Shown in pieces: positions 842 to 16,424 of a DNA stretch of 64,000 bases. A program made the position numbers and the translations under genes. Below the pieces are notes generated by a model, which made no database searches, was not told the origin of the DNA, and saw only the letters and a list, made by a program, of their open reading frames with translations. The stretch covers positions 3,348,001 through 3,412,000 of the forward strand of contig CP089274.1 of assembly GCA_023920165.1 (NCBI GenBank), written 5' to 3'. Within the stretch, counting starts at the first letter, position 1; each line of letters opens with the position of its first letter. Source of the stretch: Curvularia clavata. Lineage: Eukaryota.

Positions 842-3800
842 ATGAGGACCGCATGTCTTCGGGCTGCTAGCAGTGCTAGCCGACTCACACGATCGTCGTG
901 TATAGCCCAGCTGTCTCGCCCACAACTCGCCGGCAGCTCATCACGAGTAGTCGCCTACCAAACTCACCAGTCGCTTCAGAAGCGCGCATTCCAGCATGCC
1001 ACAACCTCACAGGCAGCCGCTGCCGCTGCTGTCGAGGCCGCTGAGGATGTATTCGATACCCCGCCTCAGCAGACCGCTTCTGCTAAGCCGTTCGAGGCGC
1101 TCGATACCTTTCCCCGCCGACACATTGGCCCCTCTGCAGAGACAGCCGAAGCCATGCTCAAGGCCCTCGACCCCCCGGTGAGCAGTCTGGATGAGTTCGT
1201 CGAGCAAGTCATCCCCGCCGACATTCTGTCTGGCCGCGAGTTGAAGATTGGAAAACTTTCCCAGCATCAAGACAACCAATGGCAAAACAACGGCGTCCCC
1301 GAGTCGGTTTTCCTTAACAATGCGAAGCAAATCATGGATCAGAACAAGCCCGGCACAAGTCTTATCGGACAAGGATACTACGGCACCAAAGTGCCAGAGG
1401 TGATTAAGAGGAACGTTCTCGAGAATCCCGCATGGTACACGAGCTATACACCATACCAGCCTGAAATTAGCCAGGGACGTCTTGAGTCACTGCTGAACTT
1501 CCAGACCATGGTCTCAGATCTGACGGGCCTCAGCATTGCAAATGCGTCAGTCTTGGACGAGCCTACCGCCGCCGCCGAGGCCATGACTATGTCCATGGGT
1601 ATGATGCCGCTATCCAAGCAGAAAAACAAAAACAAGGTCTTCCTTGTTTCGGAAAAGTGCCACCCACAGACACTAGCTGTTCTGCAATCTCGTGCTGAAG
1701 GCTTTGGTATCAAGATCGAGGTTGCCGACGTGCTTAAGGACAACAGCAAGCGGGTGGAGGAGATTGGCCAAGACTTAGTGGGCGTATTGGCTCAGTACCC
1801 AGATACAGATGGAGGTGTTAACGACTTCCGCGGACTCTCGGAGAAGGTACACAAGACAGGTGCCCTCTTCAGTGTAGCCACTGATCTGCTCGCTCTTACT
1901 CTGCTCACTCCACCGGGAGAGTTCGGTGCCGACATAGCTTTCGGAAACGCACAGCGCTTTGGTGTCCCTCTGGGTTTCGGTGGACCACATGCTGCGTTTT
2001 TTGCCTGCGACGAGAAGTACAAGCGCAAGATTCCCGGCCGCTTGATCGGTCTTTCCAAGGACAGGCTCGGAAACCCGGCAGCACGTCTTGCACTGCAGAC
2101 TCGCGAGCAGCACATTCGCCGTGAGAAGGCAACTAGCAACATTTGCACGGCCCAGGCTCTTTTGGCAAACATGAGCGCTATGTACGGTGTTTACCACGGA
2201 CCTAATGGTCTGACTGCGATTGCGAAACAAGTCGTTGCCAAGGCCCGTCTTATCCAGCAAGCCATTGTAGATAACGGCTTCAAGACTGGCCAGCGCGGAA
2301 AGATGGACAACGCTCCTGTTCTGTTCGACACTTTTGTCGTAGAGACGGGAGACAAGACGGATGGAATCATCGCTGAGCTTGAGAAGAAGGAGCTTCTCGT
2401 ACGGAGGATTGATGACGCACACATTGGTATTTCGGTTGACGAGACCACCACCGCGCAGACTATTACCAACCTGCTCGGAGCATTCCGGAAATTTGGCAAA
2501 GGTGACCAGACATCATTCAGCGAGCCGGTTGACACTGAGCTTCCCGCACCCTTCAAGAGAACTAGTCCTTTCATGACTCACCCAGTTTTCAACTCGCACC
2601 ACTCCGAGACAGAGCTTCTTCGATACATCAACCACCTGGCTTCCAAGGATCTCTCATTGGTGCACTCTATGATTCCTCTTGGATCATGCACCATGAAGCT
2701 CAATGCCACCGCCGAGATGGCTCCCGTTTCATTTGACACTGTCTCCAACCTACACCCATTCCTGCCCCTGGAGCGCGCCAAAGGATACACTGAGATGATC
2801 AAGCAGTTGGAGGATGATCTGGCTGACATTACCGGTTTCCACTCTGTCTCTCTTCAACCCAATTCTGGAGCGCAGGGCGAGTTCACTGGTCTTCGCGTTA
2901 TTCGCAAGTACCTCGAGCAGCAGCCTGGCAAGAAGCGTGACATTTGTTTGATTCCCGTCTCTGCTCACGGTACTAACCCTGCCAGTGCCGCCATGTGTGG
3001 TATGCGCGTTGTGCCCGTCAAGTGCGACCAGGCGACTGGCAATCTTGACATGGCAGATCTCAAGGCCAAGTGCGAAAAGCACAGCGAAGAGCTCGGTGCC
3101 TTCATGGTTACATACCCCAGCACTTTTGGTGTATTCGAGCCCAACGTCAAGGAGGCTTGTGATCTTATCCATCAACATGGTGGTCAGGTCTACATGGACG
3201 GCGCCAACATGAACGCTCAGATTGGCCTCTGCTCGCCAGGTGAGATTGGTGCTGATGTGTGCCATCTCAATCTCCACAAGACTTTCTGTATTCCTCATGG
3301 TGGTGGCGGTCCAGGTGTTGGACCCATTGGTGTCAAGGAGCATCTTTCGCCTTTCCTTCCTGGTCACCTTCGCGGCGAGACTGGTGGTGAACAAGCTATT
3401 CACCCTGTCAGCGGTGCCCCCTGGGGTAGCGCCAGCATTCTTCCCATCAGCTGGGCCTATATCAAGATGATGGGCGCAGTCGGTTTGACCCAAGCTACTA
3501 AGATCACTCTCCTGAACGCAAACTACATCCTCTCCCGCCTCAAGCCCCACTACCCCATCCTCTACACCAACGACCAAGGCCGCTGCGCCCACGAGTTCAT
3601 CCTCGACGTACGCGGCTTCAAAGCCACCGCCGGCGTTGAAGCCATCGACATTGCCAAGCGCCTTCAAGACTATGGATTCCACGCCCCAACTATGAGCTGG
3701 CCAGTTGCTAACACGCTCATGATTGAGCCTACCGAGTCGGAAAGCAAAGCCGAGCTCGACCGCTTCTGCGACGCCCTCATCTCCATCCGCCAAGAAATCA

Positions 3801-4131
3801 AGGAGATCGAGGACGGCAAGCAGCCCCAGGAACGAAACGTGCTCAAGATGAGCCCGCACACCCAACAGGATCTTATCACCGCCGAGTGGGACAGGAGCTA
3901 TTCGCGTGAGAAGGCTGCGTACCCGCTGAGCTACCTCAAGGCGAAGAAGTTCTGGCCCTCGGTTGCTAGGTTAGACGATGGTATGTTTTTTTCCACCCAT
4001 TTCTATGAACAAGGACGTCAAGCTAACATGATCGAATAGCTTATGGTGACACGAACCTCTTCTGCACCTGTGCGCCTGTCGAGGGAGAGGAAAGCGACAT
4101 CACTGGTGCCGCTGCACCAAACCCTACCTAG
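842..4131 (+). CDS. GCV2: Glycine dehydrogenase (glycine cleavage P-protein), mitochondrial; intron 3981-4039
   Basis: Motifs YTSYTPYQPEISQGRLESLLNFQ, REQHIRREKATSNICTAQALLAN, PLGSCTMKLN and the PLP-lysine HLNLHKTF. Arg/Ser/Ala-rich presequence. The last exon YGDTNLFCTCAPVE...* follows a GTATGT...GCTAAC...TAG intron. Confidence 0.97.
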
Positions 4132-4985: not shown

Positions 4986-6060
4986 CTAATTATACTGCCT
5001 ACTCTTCGCCGCCCACTCCTCCTCCTTTTCCTTCTTCGCCTTCTCTAGCCTCTTAATCTCCCTCGCCACGCCCCCGGAGGCCCTCCACCAAAGATCCGTT
5101 CCACTCCGAATCAGCCTCTCAGCCGCGCTCGTCGGCCCATCAACTGCGGGCCTGACATCGAGATAAAACACGGGTTCGCCCGTGGGCTCCGGCTGTCCCT
5201 CATAGTAATCAATCACGTAGCGGACCTCCTTGCACCCGCTCTCATTACACCGCTCGACGAACCAATCGTGGCGGTCAAATGGAGGCGCAGTACCGAACTT
5301 CTCTGGCATGACGTAGCCCAACCACTGCAGGATCTGTGATTTGGGCGTCGGCTCCGTCGGACGGCCTGTAAAGCGGAGGAGTTTGGGCGGAGGGATATCT
5401 TTTGCGTCCCAGGTTGTTGTGTCAAAGGGATCGTCGGCAGTACCGAGCATAAAGTTAGCGACTTCTTCGCCCTTCTTGCAGATTTGGTAGCCTTCGGCGA
5501 GGCCGCGCGAGAAACGGCGCTCCCAGCCCATGATTTCGGCCCATGCGCCTTCATTCAGAAAGTTGTGCACTCCAACCATGCTTTCGACGGCCGTGATGTC
5601 CGTGTCGGTGTAGCCTTTGCGCAGCATGGCGTTGTACATTTGCTGGGGGGAGGGGTACTCCCAGAGTGTGCCGTCGCCTTTGGGGATTGTAGAAGTTTCG
5701 CGCTCGAGAGGAAGGCTCTGTGCTTGTTTTTCGGCGCGCTCGTTGGAGAGATCCGCGAACATGTTGTTTAGAGGGTTGAGGCGGGAGAGGAGGCCGGTCT
5801 TGGGTGGTTCTGGTGCAGCACCAGTAGAGGTTTTCTCAGGTGGGACGTAAGGACAGGCGCTTTGGGAAGTCTTTTCAGCGACGACAGGTGGTGTGGCCTT
5901 CTTATGCATCGGGCATTCTGGCTGTATATATTGTTAGGGAGGCAGGCGCAGAGAGAATATTGATACATACAGGAGGCTCCATGTTGCCTCGCGGCATTGG
6001 GTGCGGAGCAACGCGCGCAGACGGCGCAGCGGGTGTAGTGTCTGCCCAAAACCAGCCCAT
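4986..6060 (-). CDS. CYC3: Cytochrome c heme lyase (holocytochrome c synthase); one intron ~5923-5970
   Basis: Starts MGWFWAD as in yeast Cyc3 and Neurospora cyt-2. Has CPM/CPY heme-regulatory motifs, [42 protein letters not shown] and LDVRPA. Confidence 0.93.
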
Positions 6061-6366: not shown

Positions 6367-7541
6367 CTATGGCGATGTCGCCTTTGCCAATTGCCCCGTG
6401 CCTCGAGAGCTGAAGATGGCCATAATACCAAAGCTACCATAGAAGAGGACCATTGGATATGCAACTAGTCCTCGCATTGAAGTCATGCGGCCTGGGAGGT
6501 CCATTAGCGTATGCTACTTGCGGACTTCAAAAGCAAACTTACCAACTACGGTGAACATTGAACTCGAACTGTAGGAGCACCATGTGATTGCCAGGCTTGT
6601 GAGAAGATATCCAAACAGTCCGTCAAGTGGGACGATGATTCCGAAGATGGCCACCAACACGAGGGGGAGCAGGCAGTAGCCTAGTACGGACGCAGATCGG
6701 GGAAATGTCAACGAGGAACCTAGGTGAGAGCCATGCGGGTGGCCGTGATCCCCAGATGTTGCCTCCACGGCGTTGATAGGCGGTGACATCAGAGAAAGAA
6801 TCTGGTGTAGTAGGATTGTGCCGACGAACGCCAATCCTGTGTACTGTCAGTTACTGTCCATTGACGAAGCATGCACACGCACCGTATATGTAACCAAAGT
6901 GGAGTTTTCCAGACAGCTGCCAGCAGTTAGTGCATAATCCCCTTATGGTTCTGTATTGCGCATACCAATAACGACGTGCCGAATATCAGGAAGAAGAGTA
7001 TAGGGCCGGCCACGTCGCTGTCATCCATAATGTGCTGATCGATGCGACCGAAGGGATTCAAGACGGCCAATGTCTATGCATTGTTAGTTGGCAATCACAT
7101 GCCACCATAACCTGCAACCCACCTTCATTTGTATGTGCTTGAAATTCACCCCCAGCTCTTCCACTAGACGTTGTTAGTTTGCGCGAATACTTAAGTGTTC
7201 GAAGTTGCGTACGTAGCGGTGGTTCTCCTTCATATCTGCTCAAGATCAGCGTTGTTCCATGCAGAAGTACGATTCACCTACCCCTCTGTGCCAAACGCAG
7301 CCAGCCAGCCTGTACGCAGGCCTGAGGTGCCCATGCCCATCTGTCCACTCACTCCTGGGGCCGAAAATCCGGCGCCATACTGGGTGGGGTATGCCTGGCT
7401 CGCCGGTGCGCCATAGTTTGCTTGGAATGGTGTAGAGTGTCCAGACACTGGTTGATTCGAGAAGGAGGACGAGTAGAATTGCAGGTTCTGTGCGTTTCCT
7501 CCGCCGTATTGGGGGGTTTGTCCATAGCCGTATTGTGCCAT
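6367..7541 (-). CDS. YIP1: Yip1-domain ER-Golgi transport protein, seven exons
   Basis: Spliced product includes [77 protein letters not shown] and MRGLVAYP. All introns are GT-AG with branch motifs. Confidence 0.93.
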
Positions 7542-8621
7542 TTCGCCAGATACCAGACACGAGTATGAGGTTGGAACGAGAAAAGGTGGTGAGAGGTGTC
7601 AATTGGTCAGGAAGACAATAAGGATGCCTGGCGGAGCTGTCGCGGATGTGTTCGTGGTTCAGGGTGTTATGTGGGGCGAGGGCCGACGTCACTGTGGACT
7701 ATGAAGCTGGAAAGACAGGGCGCATCGAAAGCAAAACTGTAGGAGGGCAACAGACTGGTTCGTCAGAAGGCTAGGAAGCAGCTGTTTTGTTCGCGATGTT
7801 GCGGCTCAGATGCGACACATGTCATCGTGTGCATCGGCACTTTCTCGTCTCGATTCGCCGACTTGGCTTAGTCACGCTTCACGGTAAGAATACGAGTCAT
7901 TACGTAGTTTCACGCTAGTTTACGCGTATAATACCCAAGATTTGAGTAAGAAATCTCGGAGGGAGATCACATGAAAAGCTTTTATGGGGGGTTCAATTGT
8001 TTTATTCTCAGGTAGTTGAGGGGGGTATGTCATATAGCTAAAGAGGAGAGTCATTATTCGTATCACACGCCAAGATTTCCACATCAACCACGAGCAGCGC
8101 CTGGCTGCAACCAGGGAGCGGAAATGGGCTCCCTTTACGTTCGGCAAAGGCTTCTTAGTACATTTCTACGGTCCTTCGCGAGGTGTAGTTACACCAGTCA
8201 CACTGGGAATGATTAGCCTATAAACAACATACTGCAGACCATTACACACCATGGTATCAGACGAGGCATCATTATCCTCTCGGCAATATTCGTTCTTACA
8301 CTTCTTACAGGTCCGAATAAACAGCTCTTTACAGCTTATGCACTGGAGGATGTTAGCTTGCAAATCAATGGGATCATAGAAATCTTACAGTATGGCCACA
8401 GCCGAAACAGTCACGTCGTACACCAATAACCTGTGATTCTTCGTGTTAGCCTGTTTCTTGCTTCGTGGTTGAGAACATACCTTGGCGCGCAAGTGGCAAT
8501 ATCCAGATGCAATTATTCAATAACCAGGCTCCACGGCCAGTCTAGAGAAGACTAGGTTCCGGAATCCAGCTACTTTGTAATGGCCTCAAGGCAATATCGC
8601 TCCTCGCGCGCCAAGGTTTTG

Positions 8622-9983
8622 TCATCCCCACATCCCGTTGCTGCCAGCGCCGGCCATCATTTCTGAAGGCAGACAATTTTCGACGCAGAGATCCATAAAT
8701 ACCTTGATCTTTTGTTTTGGGAGCATGCGAGTGGTCCCATCGGATTGCATGTTTTCTACGAGTTCAGTTTGTTGTAGCTCCGTACGTTGAACGGTACTTG
8801 GAACCACGTAACAATCCTCATCCCACCACTTGTGGCACCTCTCGCACCAGCGGCCTCGGAGGCAATCTTCGCATCGTACAATGAGAGGCGGGGGAGCGGA
8901 TCCGTCCACGGTATGCGGTAATTGAGCAGCGCGGATAGAGCTTCCGTGAAGTGGAACAGGGCTGAGCAAAGGATGATCAGATGGGCTAGAGCTTCCAAAC
9001 ACAGCTGGTCCTTCAGGAGAAGAATGGCAAGTCTCACATCCCGATGGTCCCAAAGCTACAGTAGCAATTGCAGGTCGAAGGAAGGCTGCCGGGTGCTGGG
9101 GTCCAGTGGCGGCGGGTTCCCTGATGTACGCTTTGCTTGGGTCGTGTCGTGGACCTCTGCAAAGAACAGCATCAAAAGCAATGATACCTGCGCATGCTTG
9201 AAGAATTTCTGCCCACTCTGGAGAAGGACGCTTTGATAAAATCTTTCCAGAAGATTTATACCATTTGTCCTCAGTCTGCGACAGTGCAGTGTCTAATGCA
9301 TGCTGCGATTTTTCGTTCCATTGCGCCCCAATCTGCGCTCCTCTTGACGACATGACCCCTCTGGAGACGGGGGATGGCTGTCTTTTCGTTGGAAGCGGCG
9401 CAGGACGCGGAGGAGGGTCGCGCGCTCCGAAGATGTAGATGCCCTTGACACGAGGAGTACCGGCGGGCCTCGACGGACGTACCGCATATCGGAGATATTG
9501 TTGGAGTTTGCGCTCATTTAGGTGCTTTACTTCGCGAATTGAGAGTAAGCGCACGTTGAACCGCTCTTCAGTGAGAAGATCCTTGACAAGCTCTGCTGTT
9601 ACGCTGAGTCCGTCGAGCACCAACGTATGAACATTTTGAAGGACACGGATCTTCTCGAGTCTGTTGAAGATGTTTCGTAGAGGACCACTGTAGAAGTCGT
9701 CTTCGGTGAGCGCTTCGTCCATTCGTTCAGCACGGAAGTTGACGCCGCCCACGTCAAGAGGGCCATCGAAGGGTACAATGGCGGACTTTACGGGGGAAAG
9801 ATCCAGGTAGCGGAACGCCTCGGGAGATTGAAAGATAACATGGTGGAGTGATTTGCAGGTCCGCGACAGGTTACGCAGAGCCGATACTGGAAGATATGGA
9901 GCGGTTTGGCGCAGAATTAAGGTATTAGAGAGAAGGTCCGCCAGGGAGGTAGGTAGTTGGTCACAGAAAGTAGCCGGGCCCAT
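8622..9983 (-). CDS. F-box-like protein with Cys-rich C-terminus (unspliced isoform; an alternative spliced end runs to 8155)
   Basis: Long ORF with likely ATG at 9983 (MGPATF). N-terminal LADLLSNTLILRQTAPYLPVSALRNLSRTCKSLH is F-box-like. CxxC pairs CETC, CEDC and CERC occur near the C-terminus. Confidence 0.7.
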   Translation of the reverse strand: MGPATFCDQLPTSLADLLSNTLILRQTAPYLPVSALRNLSRTCKSLHHVIFQSPEAFRYLDLSPVKSAIVPFDGPLDVGGVNFRAERMDEALTEDDFYSGPLRNIFNRLEKIRVLQNVHTLVLDGLSVTAELVKDLLTEERFNVRLLSIREVKHLNERKLQQYLRYAVRPSRPAGTPRVKGIYIFGARDPPPRPAPLPTKRQPSPVSRGVMSSRGAQIGAQWNEKSQHALDTALSQTEDKWYKSSGKILSKRPSPEWAEILQACAGIIAFDAVLCRGPRHDPSKAYIREPAATGPQHPAAFLRPAIATVALGPSGCETCHSSPEGPAVFGSSSPSDHPLLSPVPLHGSSIRAAQLPHTVDGSAPPPLIVRCEDCLRGRWCERCHKWWDEDCYVVPSTVQRTELQQTELVENMQSDGTTRMLPKQKIKVFMDLCVENCLPSEMMAGAGSNGMWG

Positions 9984-10838
9984 GACGAATGGTCGAGGGA
10001 ATCCAGAAAAGCAAGTTGGCCAAGTGGGCAGACGGGTACTCAGCGATTCTTTATTACAACGAGGGGAGAGTGCCCAGACGGGGCACGTGCCAGCGATCTG
10101 ACAATGCAGGTATGTGTTAGGTGAGCAAAAAGGACGACTAATGGATGTTGAGACAGTGCAGAGGTTGGGGTTGTGCTGGCGTGGGATGCGCGGCCCCTGC
10201 GGCGATCCCAAAGACAAGACCCTGCCAAGAGAGATAGCAGAGAGACAATTTGCCCATTTGTACAGGATGCTGCAAGATTAGGCGGTGATGGAGCAAGAGT
10301 TGGAACACAGTTTGCAGCCAAGGCCGCGGCCAAAGGCTTGGGTGTTTGATTTTGGAAACATTGGCAGGCCTCTGTTGCAACATTGCCTGGCGGGGGCGTG
10401 ATACAGCCAGGCGAAGCTATCTGCCCCGCCTTGGCCGGTTACGACAATGAATCGCCATATCGAAACATGAGCAAGTGTCCGGTGGGTACTGCGCGACCCC
10501 TCTCCGCTTATGCATGCCCAGGAGCCAGAGGCCGAAGATAGATGAAATGCTACATGAGCTCGACAGCCAGTTGAAACATGTCGCCTTGTCCTCTTCACCG
10601 GAAGCGGGCGTCGTCGCCACGCTCCACGCGTTACCCACGCGCGTGTCTTATCGATAAGCTCGCCTCGGCGGCCCGGGGCGTAGGGCAGGCAGGCAATGAC
10701 GCCACGCATTCACAGAAGCTTCGAGCAGAGCCGCATATGTCAGCCACTTTCAACTGCGACTCTGCTACCCTCCCATGTATCTAGCCCCAGGCGCAGTCTC
10801 CGCTGTTGGCAACTGCTCTTCGCGACTCTCACTCCGCC

Positions 10839-13223
10839 ATGGACCCCGAAACAGAACCACCAGCAGAGCTTAAGTGGTCTGCCCAGTACAGTCTTGCCAG
10901 TCCGACCCGTAATGCCCTCCCCGGCGACAAAGTCCTCCTGCCTCCCTCGGCACTGGAACAGCTACTCGCCGCAGCACCTGTAGTTCACGTCGACGCAAGC
11001 AGGCCGCACATAACCGCCTTTGATCCGTTCAATCCATACACCTTCAACGCTGAGCGACAAGCGAGGGCGCAGACGCAGGACCGATTCCAGCAGTTGCCAC
11101 ACCCGCTTACCTTTCGCCTCGTCAATCCAGATAATGGCAGGGCTGTTCATGCAGGAATCCGCGAGTTTTCTGCCGACGAGGGTGAGATTGTTCTGAGCGA
11201 CTTTTTGAAAGAGGCACTGGGCATCCAGGCGCGATCTGCGGAGCCGTCCAGGGATGCAAGTCCAAATGGCTTCACAGATCAAGACCAGGTCATGAAAAAC
11301 GGAGCCGAGGAGATGCCCGGCAGCAACAATATTACTACCAAAATCACGGTCCATGCTAAACAACTACCCAAGGGCACGTTTGTAAAGCTGCGGCCTCTCG
11401 AAGCCGGCTACGATCCCGAAGACTGGAAGTCGCTACTTGAAGAACACCTGCGATCAAATTTCACAACATTAACAAACGGCGAGATCTTGGTCGTATACGG
11501 CGGTCGAGGGGCTGGAGGCAAGCGTGAAGAGTTTCGCTTTTTGATTGACGGCTTTAAGCCTGAAGGAGATGGAATATGTGTTGTGGATACAGATTTGGAA
11601 GTTGATATCGAGGCTTTGAATGAAGAGCAGGCTCGTGAAACATTAAAGAGGATAGCAGCTAAAAGGCACCGTGCGCCTGGCACCGAACAGGGGAGTTCGA
11701 CCGGCGGCGCCATTGATATATTCAAACCGCAGACTGGACAGGCACTCGAGGGCGAGTATGTCGATTTTGAGCTTGCATCATGGGACAGATCCCAAGGGCT
11801 GGATATCTCGCTGGATGAAGTTGATGCCGAAGACGATATTGACCTTTTCGTCAGCCCGTACTCTTCACGCCAAAGGGTTCGCCCGCGAGAAGATGAGCAC
11901 GTTTTCGCGGATCTGTCTAGTCGATACCCGAAACACATACGTTTACAACCTACGAATGTCGAACTCGATGAGGCAGAAGCAGTGTGGATCTCAGTACGCG
12001 CGTATCCGTCGAACTCACCTTCCAGCACGCCCAAGCCTTTCCGCCTAAGAGTCTCGGTATTTGATCCAAAGAAAGAGACAGAAACCAAGAATGGAGAGTC
12101 GGCTGAAGATGCACCCACAGTAGGAGAGGGTGAGGTACAGTGTAAAAACTGCAAGCAGATTGTCCCCAAAGGCTCTTTGTTCCTCCACGAAAATTTTTGT
12201 CTCCGAAACAACGTTCTCTGCCCCCAAGGCTGTGGCCAAGTCTTCCAAAAGCGCTCGGCAGCATACCAGAACCACTGGCACTGTCCCCACGATACCTTCA
12301 GCGGCAACACTCCTCTCAGCCGCGAAAAGCACGACGCCTACTACCACACTCCTCAAATCTGTTCTTCATGCGGCCTAGAGTTTCCTTCGATTCCAACTCT
12401 CGCCCATCACAAAACCACAATCTGCCCTGGAAAACTCATCCTATGTCGCTTCTGCCACCTGCAAGTCGCGCAAGAAGGCGATCCAAACGACCAATCCCCC
12501 GAGCTCCTCCTCTCGGGCCTCACACCGCACGAGCTGGCTGACGGCAGCCGGACGACAGAATGCCACCTTTGTCAGAAAATCATCCGCTTCAGAGACATGT
12601 CTACGCACCTTCGCCACCATGACCTCGAGCGCCTTTCCCGTCCCGCTCCGCGCCTCTGCCGCAACGTAAACTGCGGGCGCACCCAAGACGGCGCCTCAAA
12701 AACCGGTGATACACGTGCTGGAACCCGCAAAGGCCAGGGCCCCGGCAACGACATTGGGCTCTGCAGTGTCTGCTTCGGTCCTCTGTACGTTTCCCTACAC
12801 GACCCAGACGGCAAGGCTCTCCGCCGCCGCATTGAGCGCCGCTATCTCAGCCAGCTCCTCACTGGGTGCGGTAAAGCATGGTGCCAGAACGCGTATTGTC
12901 GTACTGGCCGCAAGAATACGGGTCAGGGGGATCAATCGGTGCCGACTAAAGATGCTATTCCGCTTGTTAAACCCTTTTTACAGGGTATGGATGGGAAAAC
13001 GCCGGTGGAGGAGTTGACGCCTCTGCATTTTTGTGTCGATGAGAGGGCACAGAAGGCGAGGACCCTGGCGGAGATGTTGGCGGCGGAGAAGGGGATAGAG
13101 GGCAAGGGAGGTTATGGGCTTGAGTGGTGCGTTGCAGCGTTGGAGGCAGAAGGAGGGGATTTGGAGAAGGCGAGGAATTGGCTCAAGGGGTGGGCCCCGC
13201 AGAGGGCAGAGGTGGGACAATAG
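10839..13223 (+). CDS. UFD1-domain protein with TRAF-type zinc fingers and AZUL-like and UBA-like C-terminal modules
   Basis: UFD1 fold motifs GDKVLLPPSALEQL, HAGIREFSADEG, LPKGTFVKLRP, LEEHLRSNFTTLT and ICVVDTDLEVDI. Repeated CxxC...HxxxC fingers follow. ATG at 10839 is in GCCATGG context. Confidence 0.85.
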   Translation: MDPETEPPAELKWSAQYSLASPTRNALPGDKVLLPPSALEQLLAAAPVVHVDASRPHITAFDPFNPYTFNAERQARAQTQDRFQQLPHPLTFRLVNPDNGRAVHAGIREFSADEGEIVLSDFLKEALGIQARSAEPSRDASPNGFTDQDQVMKNGAEEMPGSNNITTKITVHAKQLPKGTFVKLRPLEAGYDPEDWKSLLEEHLRSNFTTLTNGEILVVYGGRGAGGKREEFRFLIDGFKPEGDGICVVDTDLEVDIEALNEEQARETLKRIAAKRHRAPGTEQGSSTGGAIDIFKPQTGQALEGEYVDFELASWDRSQGLDISLDEVDAEDDIDLFVSPYSSRQRVRPREDEHVFADLSSRYPKHIRLQPTNVELDEAEAVWISVRAYPSNSPSSTPKPFRLRVSVFDPKKETETKNGESAEDAPTVGEGEVQCKNCKQIVPKGSLFLHENFCLRNNVLCPQGCGQVFQKRSAAYQNHWHCPHDTFSGNTPLSREKHDAYYHTPQICSSCGLEFPSIPTLAHHKTTICPGKLILCRFCHLQVAQEGDPNDQSPELLLSGLTPHELADGSRTTECHLCQKIIRFRDMSTHLRHHDLERLSRPAPRLCRNVNCGRTQDGASKTGDTRAGTRKGQGPGNDIGLCSVCFGPLYVSLHDPDGKALRRRIERRYLSQLLTGCGKAWCQNAYCRTGRKNTGQGDQSVPTKDAIPLVKPFLQGMDGKTPVEELTPLHFCVDERAQKARTLAEMLAAEKGIEGKGGYGLEWCVAALEAEGGDLEKARNWLKGWAPQRAEVGQ

Positions 13224-14615: not shown

Positions 14616-14921
14616 TGTTGCGGATTGCTCAAGTTGCCTTTGCTCTAAGAACTGAAACGGGAAGCGATAAAGAAAGAAAACGTGGGCAAGCGATGGAAAC
14701 TGGATTTAAGAACAAGAAGAGAAAAAAAAAGTCAGTAGCCGCGGCAGCAGTCAGAGTGGTTACCTAGTTGGGCGGGCCAGGCTAGAGCGGCGAAGGCCGA
14801 AATTCTGTGGTGGGGGTTTCCCTGTGCCCCGCGCTGTCGGCGGGCCAATCAGGTGACGCATAGGGTTTTGTGAATGGTATGCCATCGCTGGTGGACTGCT
14901 TTCCGAGCCAAAACTGCCTCC

Positions 14922-16424
14922 ATGACCGACTTGATGCAAACCTTTAGGCAGCTCGATGCCCACCAAAGACAGCACTTCCTGGCCTGCTTGCCCGCCGAGC
15001 TGACGCCCTACGAGTGGAGGGACCTTCATGCCATCACCAGCACTCGTTTGTTCTACCTAGATATCATTGGCCGACTGCCCATTGAGCTAGTAGCCCATGT
15101 ATTCTCCTACCTGGATCCCGCTGCCCCCTACCGCTGCCAATCCGTCTCCAGACTGTGGCACCAGGTGCTCCGGAGCCTTGATGTGCTCAAGGCCCCCCTT
15201 CATTCATGGTACCAGGGCGTGCTTCCTCTCCGAGATGGCGACTATGCCTCGTGTGTGCAGACAGCTTCAAGTATCCAGAGATTCCGCGCCGGCAGACCAG
15301 TCAGCGTTTACAGAATAGCGTTAGACAACCACATGGCCGCCCCATGTCTGGTTGATGACCATCTGATATGGATGGGATGTCCTCGGCAAGGGCAATCACG
15401 TATGGCCTATGTGCTCAATCTGCAGACCTGGCAGCTTCGCTACTTGGCTGGAGAGGCACGTGAGCTTCTCTTGGGCCTGGCAGCTTCAGACCAGATTGTA
15501 ATGCTCAGCACCGCCAGCAACACTTGTTATGTCTTTGAACTAGACAAGGTCGGACCGCCCAAGAAGTTCAGTCTTCCCTCGAGACAGTTTCTGAGATATG
15601 TAGCTTGTCATGGCCGCACGGTAGCATGTGTTGCTTCGTATGAGAGGCATACGTCTGTCTTCATCTGGGATTACGATACACAACAAGGCACGTCGTTTGA
15701 CATCAGTCATGGTCCTGACTCTGTTTTTGCTGGCTACGGCTATGGCCATATAAAAATGAGGCACGTAGCCCCTATCGTACACCCTGAGACGAAGACAATT
15801 TCTCTCTTGTTCGTTTTTGGGGTCTCCAGTGCAACACAATCCCCTGACCACACGTTATTCGTGCTATCGGCCACGTACACTTTTCGGGGAGATTACATGT
15901 CTTCCTCTTGCCCAAGCCTCCCAAACGTGGATCAAATGATCTTTTGGCCCGGTAAAAGTGTTTTTGTTCCAGCAGATGATTCCAAGACGATCTTTAGCCT
16001 GCGTATGCAGGTATTGAAGGGGGGTCATGATGGCAGCGTCTCGCGCTCGGGCACCCTGGTCCTTCAGTTCAATGTGAAGACTCATGAATTGAGCGTGTCC
16101 AAAGGCTTGGGTGCAATTCGTTTCGATCACTCGGTAGCTTGGTGGAAAGACACATGCTATGGGTTCAAAGTGGATGGAGATATTGGAGACAGGGTGGCCT
16201 ACATGGGCACCTACGACACAGAAGCATATATACCAATCGTCTCAGAAGTAACGAGCTCCCAGGTGCATTACTCGGATCCTTTACTCGTCAACGAGAAGCA
16301 TGTTGTTAAAATCATGTCTGCAGGACGCGTCTACCTCGCCTGTTTCGACGAGAGCAGTGACCGACCCACTGGAGAAGGATCTTTTTTCGACATGGGAGAG
16401 GTATTGTCATACCATGTAGAGTAA
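14922..16424 (+). CDS. F-box domain protein with a divergent beta-rich C-terminal region
   Basis: F-box signature LDIIGRLPIELVAHVFSYLDP...CQSVSRLWHQVL in a ~500 aa uninterrupted ORF. Confidence 0.8.
   Translation: MTDLMQTFRQLDAHQRQHFLACLPAELTPYEWRDLHAITSTRLFYLDIIGRLPIELVAHVFSYLDPAAPYRCQSVSRLWHQVLRSLDVLKAPLHSWYQGVLPLRDGDYASCVQTASSIQRFRAGRPVSVYRIALDNHMAAPCLVDDHLIWMGCPRQGQSRMAYVLNLQTWQLRYLAGEARELLLGLAASDQIVMLSTASNTCYVFELDKVGPPKKFSLPSRQFLRYVACHGRTVACVASYERHTSVFIWDYDTQQGTSFDISHGPDSVFAGYGYGHIKMRHVAPIVHPETKTISLLFVFGVSSATQSPDHTLFVLSATYTFRGDYMSSSCPSLPNVDQMIFWPGKSVFVPADDSKTIFSLRMQVLKGGHDGSVSRSGTLVLQFNVKTHELSVSKGLGAIRFDHSVAWWKDTCYGFKVDGDIGDRVAYMGTYDTEAYIPIVSEVTSSQVHYSDPLLVNEKHVVKIMSAGRVYLACFDESSDRPTGEGSFFDMGEVLSYHVE

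Follow-up and report, generated by a model that had tools for sequence, protein, structure and literature searches.

An F-box-like gene on the minus strand of the Curvularia clavata DNA analyzed here (the window; 64,000 nt of contig CP089274.1) can be spliced to encode two proteins with different C-termini. The most probable explanation, in our judgment, is an old splice switch kept by selection in a single-copy gene of Pezizomycotina, whose product is a probable F-box (SCF) adaptor, with an RNA hairpin setting the balance between the two forms. The open reading frame 8622-9983 encodes 453 aa and has one match in its own genome (single-copy by that search). Joining the shared exon to the three exons of tail B (Table 1) gives 1464 nt that stay open for 487 aa, and the three introns of 272, 46 and 47 nt all run from GT to CAG with GCTAAC or GCTAAT branch sites. 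Splicing from donor 1 yields the 487-aa form, and retention of the 272-nt intron or splicing from donor 2 yields the 453-aa form; with a single acceptor, the three outcomes are in competition. The donor 1 site extends into the opening codons of tail A, which carries a CxxxC (C433/C437) and terminates in G-M-W-G; use of donor 2 retains this tail and shortens the UTR. Transcript contigs extend past exon 4 to about 7985.

A sequence-only reading of this DNA had proposed the three-exon alternative C-terminus, and recomputation from the sequence showed its coordinates, phases and peptides to be exact, with four CxxC pairs and C461 added by splicing at the end of the 487-aa protein. It had also called this tail hidden, which is true for the ORF track that missed it and only for that, since existing annotations give tail B to 28 of the 120 listed homologues, nearly all others terminating in tail A. 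Many of the tail-A (~450-aa) database proteins are intron-blind gene calls, which prove nothing on expression.

Table 1. Features of the F-box-like locus and neighboring genes, in window coordinates.
Feature	Position	Strand	Basis
Shared coding exon, 427 aa	8703..9983	-	ORF, splice model, Pfam, Cys spacing
Donor 1, AAG/GTATTT, phase 0, weak (without G at +5)	8697..8705	-	Sequence, RNA contigs, donor scoring
Tail A, 26 codons + TGA within the 272-nt intron	8622..8702	-	ORF, RNA contigs, conservation
Long RNA hairpin (predicted), form A 3' UTR / form B intron	8479..8617	-	Folding, alignment
Donor 2, AAG/GTATGT, consensus, 50 nt from shared acceptor	8475..8483	-	Sequence, X9 loose end, L006
Branch site GCTAAC and shared acceptor CAG	8431..8450	-	Sequence, RNA contigs
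Tail B exon 2, 14 aa, CxxC C435/C438	8389..8430	-	Splice model, RNA contigs, conservation
Tail B exon 3, 31 aa, CxxC-x7-CxxC-x4-C-x2-D	8250..8342	-	Splice model, RNA contigs
Tail B exon 4, 15 aa + TAA, last CxxC	8155..8202	-	Splice model, RNA contigs
GGCACGTGCC (CACGTG) box, ~100 nt upstream of ATG	10084..10089		Matches NUC-1 consensus
UFD1-like multi-zinc-finger gene	10839-13223	+	Pfam UFD1_N, DUF7590, XAF1-type, AZUL hits
Second, clearer F-box gene, 5 kb off	14874-16424	+	Pfam above cut-off
Cytochrome c/c1 heme lyase	4986-5909	-	Pfam

Expression of the forms was followed in the listed pieces of Logan contigs from four runs (X1, X4, X9 and X11) out of 20 listed; three of these four are only guessed to be RNA. 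The 47-, 46- and 272-nt joints are present in contigs of all four runs, bearing out the predicted junctions 8249>8203, 8388>8343 and 8702>8431. At the same time, contigs span the entire 272-nt intron in X1 (depth 17.6 versus 37.8 spliced) and X4 (73.6 versus 96), depths which, coming from contigs, give no isoform ratio, and pieces run across donor 1 unspliced in X9 and X11. Thus, the spliced form was found in 4/4 runs and the retained form fully in two and partly in two. Both small introns have bin depths equal to the zero-cover expectation in all four runs, which argues against DNA carry-over as the source of the retained 272-nt intron. The second donor exists with exactly the position and sequence that had been read from the DNA; support for its use is weaker and consists of two X9 contigs whose loose end at 8479 is 15 nt of exon 2, and an intron-free contig of a Didymella-like relative (L006), which carries tail A joined at the equivalent of donor 2. 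Intron-free contigs with the B join were found in a more distant lineage (L022, L034, L050).

Conservation was analyzed in 80 metagenome loci, from which we dropped 15 without the anchor pattern (several of these do show both tails), 10 with less than 750 nt downstream and 17 near-duplicates, leaving 38 distinct contigs; the query was an A-type alignment and the sample therefore leans toward Dothideomycetes and carriers of tail A. Both tails lie within one locus in 35 of the 38 fungal contigs, including Helotiales-like loci (for seven loci, the best match among the F-box-like queries is a Helotiales protein), the exceptions being L015 with only A, the Aspergillus-like L078 with only B, and L055 with neither by pattern. 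The earlier remark that the retained intron looks like real coding sequence agrees with the substitution pattern: across 22 loci, the uncorrected pairwise pN/pS of tail A, calculated from related loci, is 0.24 in its own frame versus 1.60 and 1.27 in the other frames, and third codon positions are the most variable. By the same measure exon 2 has a value of 0.30, and within Pleosporales tail A reaches 0.28 versus 0.04 for exon 2. Conservation of tail A runs about 15 residues past the Cys pair to the final G-M-W-G, whose terminal W-G is retained in 31 of the 38 loci; the tail is degenerate or shortened in L023, L027, L044, Botrytis and Colletotrichum and missing in L078. In L015:2900-3340 tail A is intact, exons 2 and 3 of tail B are unrecognisable and just a remnant of the last exon is left.

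Database models point in the same direction as the junction contigs, the 35 loci and the selection on tail A, which together uphold the idea of a splice switch between two conserved tails. Gene models of Botrytis cinerea BCIN_01g03410 encode 447 aa (A-like) and 474 and 480 aa (B) under the same gene id, and 453- and 487-aa forms exist for Bipolaris maydis and Alternaria alternata, from different annotations; these and NCU05581 belong to the same family and share the same junction, as database models only. The two tails at one locus explain why the choice between about 450 and 485 aa in database annotations of orthologues is arbitrary. Paralogues with only A or only B were considered and dropped; the members of a G-G-M-W-G group named so far are lichen fungi, and the one match in the own genome also speaks against paralogues.

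A different route to the same end was found in an unplaced fungal lineage (L016, L017, L070, L072), where donor 1 is shifted upstream and the last Met codon contains donor 2. Joining from this donor 2 is predicted to restore M-W-G-stop via exon 2 read in another frame, and donor 1 still yields tail B in frame. The start of exon 2 is dual-coded in L016:2930-3170, L017, L070 and L072:3720-3920. Leotiomycete models P0549, P0554 and P0555 have other last-exon ends (AGRHAI.., CDCMRE..), suggesting more isoforms, and a choice of last exon is also seen at the Helotiales-like loci L040, L043, L046, L052, L053, L066 and L068.

The protein is a probable F-box (SCF) adaptor. A weak F-box-like motif lies at aa 30-53 (Pfam E 0.016, below cut-off), and of 17 homologues searched with Pfam one passes the cut-off and 10 more are sub-threshold. 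The shared exon has a CxxC at 316 and candidate zinc ligands, assigned by spacing, at C371/C374, C380/C383, D388 and C391; its end reads CxxC-x5-CxxC-x4-(C or D)-x2-C, where 360 distinct motifs have C 262 times and D 96 times. Right after the junction both tails carry a Cys pair (433/437 in A, 435/438 in B), the conserved CxxxC of tail A sitting at the same position as the first CxxC of tail B, and both therefore probably close one shared zinc domain. Thus, the earlier proposal that only tail B completes a zinc domain is not supported. Tail B continues with CxxC-x7-CxxC-x4-C-x2-(H or D), the final residue of exon 3 being H in most distant relatives, and then the last CxxC. From this spacing we infer one eight-ligand zinc unit in form A and two in form B: either tail would provide the last Cys pair of the shared unit, tail B would add a second similar one, and tail A would add a short peptide with an exposed G-M-W-G end. 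The forms may then differ in partner, substrate or turnover.

The type of zinc fold is less clear. The ligand count fits a cross-braced binuclear fold, and the two units showed a weak likeness by hhalign (probability 4.8%, E 0.008). A RING/IBR-like domain, as had been suggested, is not borne out: the RING (C3HC4/C3H2C3) and IBR (C6HC) spacings match neither isoform, and the 17 homologues gave no Pfam hit to either. Patterns for FYVE, PHD, B-box and AN1 failed as well, with no FYVE Pfam hit in the 17 homologues, and a PDB profile search gave nothing below E 0.058 (1wff; UHRF1 3t6r had E 0.4). Both isoforms were modelled with AlphaFold, as had been proposed, form A from 48 rows (mean pLDDT 44) and form B via the Bipolaris orthologue from 28 rows (mean pLDDT 35); both models are of low confidence and uninformative, and the proposed zinc wiring is therefore derived from Cys spacing. 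Foldseek found no match at E<=0.001, and weak LRR and F-box-LRR rows (FBXL5, SKP2, D3) were not counted; the shared exon probably holds a short LRR-like region, as suggested by these non-significant rows of a low-confidence model. In the Atlas, the whole protein had a feature score of 0.84 to a plant F-box cluster with PF28114 (At3g27290_F_box_C), a likeness in that score alone, without alignment, which at <0.9 is a lead only; residues 360-486 searched alone gave no usable hit.

The 272-nt intron as a whole folds better than its shuffles (z -3.5), owing to a hairpin at 8617-8479 that was previously unreported and that the sequence-only reading had missed. Its predicted basal stem (8616-8606 with 8490-8480) pairs over the AAG/GT of donor 2, and donor 1 is predicted to be mostly unpaired. 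The basal stem is found in 13 of 13 folded Pleosporales-like or closely related loci (z -1.8 to -8.1); it is kept in L007 and L038, where the interior of the hairpin is deleted, and has changed in L013 yet stays complementary. For covariation we aligned 11 loci, leaving out L007, L013 and L038 for their large indels and adding L023. In this alignment 94% of cells are paired and 7 of 31 pairs show two-sided changes versus 2.4 in shuffles (0 of 500 shuffles), counts that are inflated by relatedness, the structure having been derived from the same related sequences; the basal stem contributes a two-sided change at just one of its 12 pairs. Conserved pairing over the donor and compensatory change, with modest covariation, make this a candidate splice-site-masking hairpin. 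In all 12 genomic loci of the hairpin group, donor 2 has the consensus and lies 49-52 nt from the acceptor and donor 1 lacks the G at +5, donors being scored with rough home-made weights. Seven Helotiales-like loci gave no folding signal, and their second donor is conserved but weaker.

Taken together, we propose that in Pleosporales and close kin the hairpin pairs over the strong proximal donor 2 and, by collapsing, leaves about 133 nt, which would cut the effective intron from 272 nt and let the weak distal donor 1 be used. Folding of the hairpin would thereby set the A:B balance, biasing it toward donor 1. We regard as doubtful an alternative in which the hairpin does not control donor choice and is instead a small RNA in its own right or acts in the mature A transcript, be it in read-through, localisation, editing or stability. 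In favor of such a role, it usually begins 5-20 nt past the tail-A stop, the donor-2 product L006 still contains it, and its inner helices are more conserved than donor masking would require. However, its 3' arm always stops on donor 2, also where a long distance separates the hairpin from the stop (L008, L023) or its interior has been lost (L007, L038), and Rfam gave no match to E 5 over 7900-10400 (riboswitch, snoRNA, other RNA). Read-through of the stop into the hairpin was rejected because the stop-to-stem spacing preserves no reading frame. At L023:1045-1420 tail A is degenerate, about 130 nt extra lie between stop and hairpin, and the hairpin still reaches donor 2.

Three further explanations were weighed. 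An artefact, with tail A a chance read-through and the retained contigs derived from DNA or unprocessed pre-mRNA, is extremely unlikely: the runs are contigs mostly only guessed to be RNA and many 450-aa proteins stem from intron-blind calls, but zero cover of both small introns, and also of the bin 7874-7960, and the coding-type selection on tail A contradict this. With introns lying beyond its stop, form A may be subject to decay. Under regulated unproductive splicing, B would be the working form and A a nonsense-decay off switch tuning its level, with a tail that is weakly conserved or a safety cap. The position of the tail-A stop upstream of two to three spliced introns and a long structured UTR fits this, as do the erosion of tail A in some lineages, its absence from L078 and its looser constraint than exon 2 in Pleosporales (0.28 versus 0.04). 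We nevertheless consider it unlikely in view of the codon-position pattern and the pN/pS of 0.24 across classes, the W-G end, which 31 of 38 loci retain and which another splice route re-creates, the loss of B with A kept in L015, and the good cover of the retained form in X1 and X4. Quite improbable, too, is redundancy, in which both tails close the same zinc domain, either form works and tail A, with no distinct role, serves as insurance against inefficient splicing of the intron; the Cys pair after the junction in both tails and single-tail loci in both directions (L015, L078) would be expected, whereas conservation for about 15 residues beyond that pair to G-M-W-G, the keeping of both tails at 35 of 38 loci and a dedicated hairpin maintained over donor 2 would not.

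Upstream of the gene, the CACGTG box falls in the transcribed leader by contig cover. The hexamer is present within 800 nt upstream in 16 of 36 loci, and two other hexamers score 14 and one 16, so that only its clustered position, between -84 and -189 in 14 of the 36 related loci, is suggestive. It is possibly a phosphate-regulon (bHLH) site, which we take as a lead only: 10.1101/2025.04.07.647663, the one paper found to mention the Neurospora orthologue NCU05581, reports it as directly activated by the phosphate regulator NUC-1, whose consensus, as quoted there, the box matches. The UFD1-like gene is divergent from the F-box-like gene, the two are neighbors in many loci, and in one Eurotiales model (P0135) they are fused, the probable reason why orthologues bear the label 'ubiquitin fusion degradation'. 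Elsewhere in the window, 842-4039 (+) is presumably a glycine dehydrogenase-like ORF, and we take 6500-7541 (-) to be a multi-intron Yip1-like gene. A more far-reaching and, in our estimate, unlikely extension of the switch model is that in Pleosporales a previously undescribed RNA-structure sensor (of temperature, a ligand or a protein) toggles the SCF adaptor between a double-zinc-unit and a G-M-W-G form, that the switch is older than the divergence of Dothideomycetes from Leotiomycetes, and that it may sit in the phosphate-starvation regulon; G-M-W-G would then be a C-terminal degron, a conjugation site or a docking peptide.

No description of the isoforms or the switch was found in the literature searched, a scope outside subscription journals and supplements, which may hold isoform tables. 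SKI7/HBS1 (PMC3597508) is a case of old fungal alternative splicing with two proteins per gene and a mechanism that varies by lineage. It resembles our gene in being an old event through which one gene gives two proteins by splice routes that vary between lineages; it differs in that the protein is unrelated and its functions are proven, and that losses there follow duplication, unlike the single-tail loci here, which show no sign of a paralogue. Splice variants of Ste12 in Botrytis, Colletotrichum and Cytospora alter the number of C-terminal zinc fingers (PMC10789715). The likeness is a zinc-finger count altered by splicing at the C-terminus in filamentous ascomycetes; as described there, however, Ste12 is a transcription factor whose C2H2 fingers are truncated, whereas the shorter product of our gene acquires a conserved tail of its own, and a hairpin lies over one donor. 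In fungal TPP riboswitch introns, one 5' splice site out of two is hidden by pairing of the RNA. The shared principle would be a structure-controlled choice between two donors, but our hairpin matches no Rfam family, is assigned no ligand and is restricted to Pleosporales and close kin.

According to PMC3597508, fungi rarely have alternative splicing that yields two proteins under selection. The switch proposed here would be old and re-wired through different splice routes that keep the same last residues. To our knowledge, few such fungal cases have been traced across classes. Its candidate cis-acting hairpin is directly testable, and the two forms may offer a way into an F-box-like family that is still uncharacterised and whose member in Neurospora is reported to be a direct target of NUC-1.
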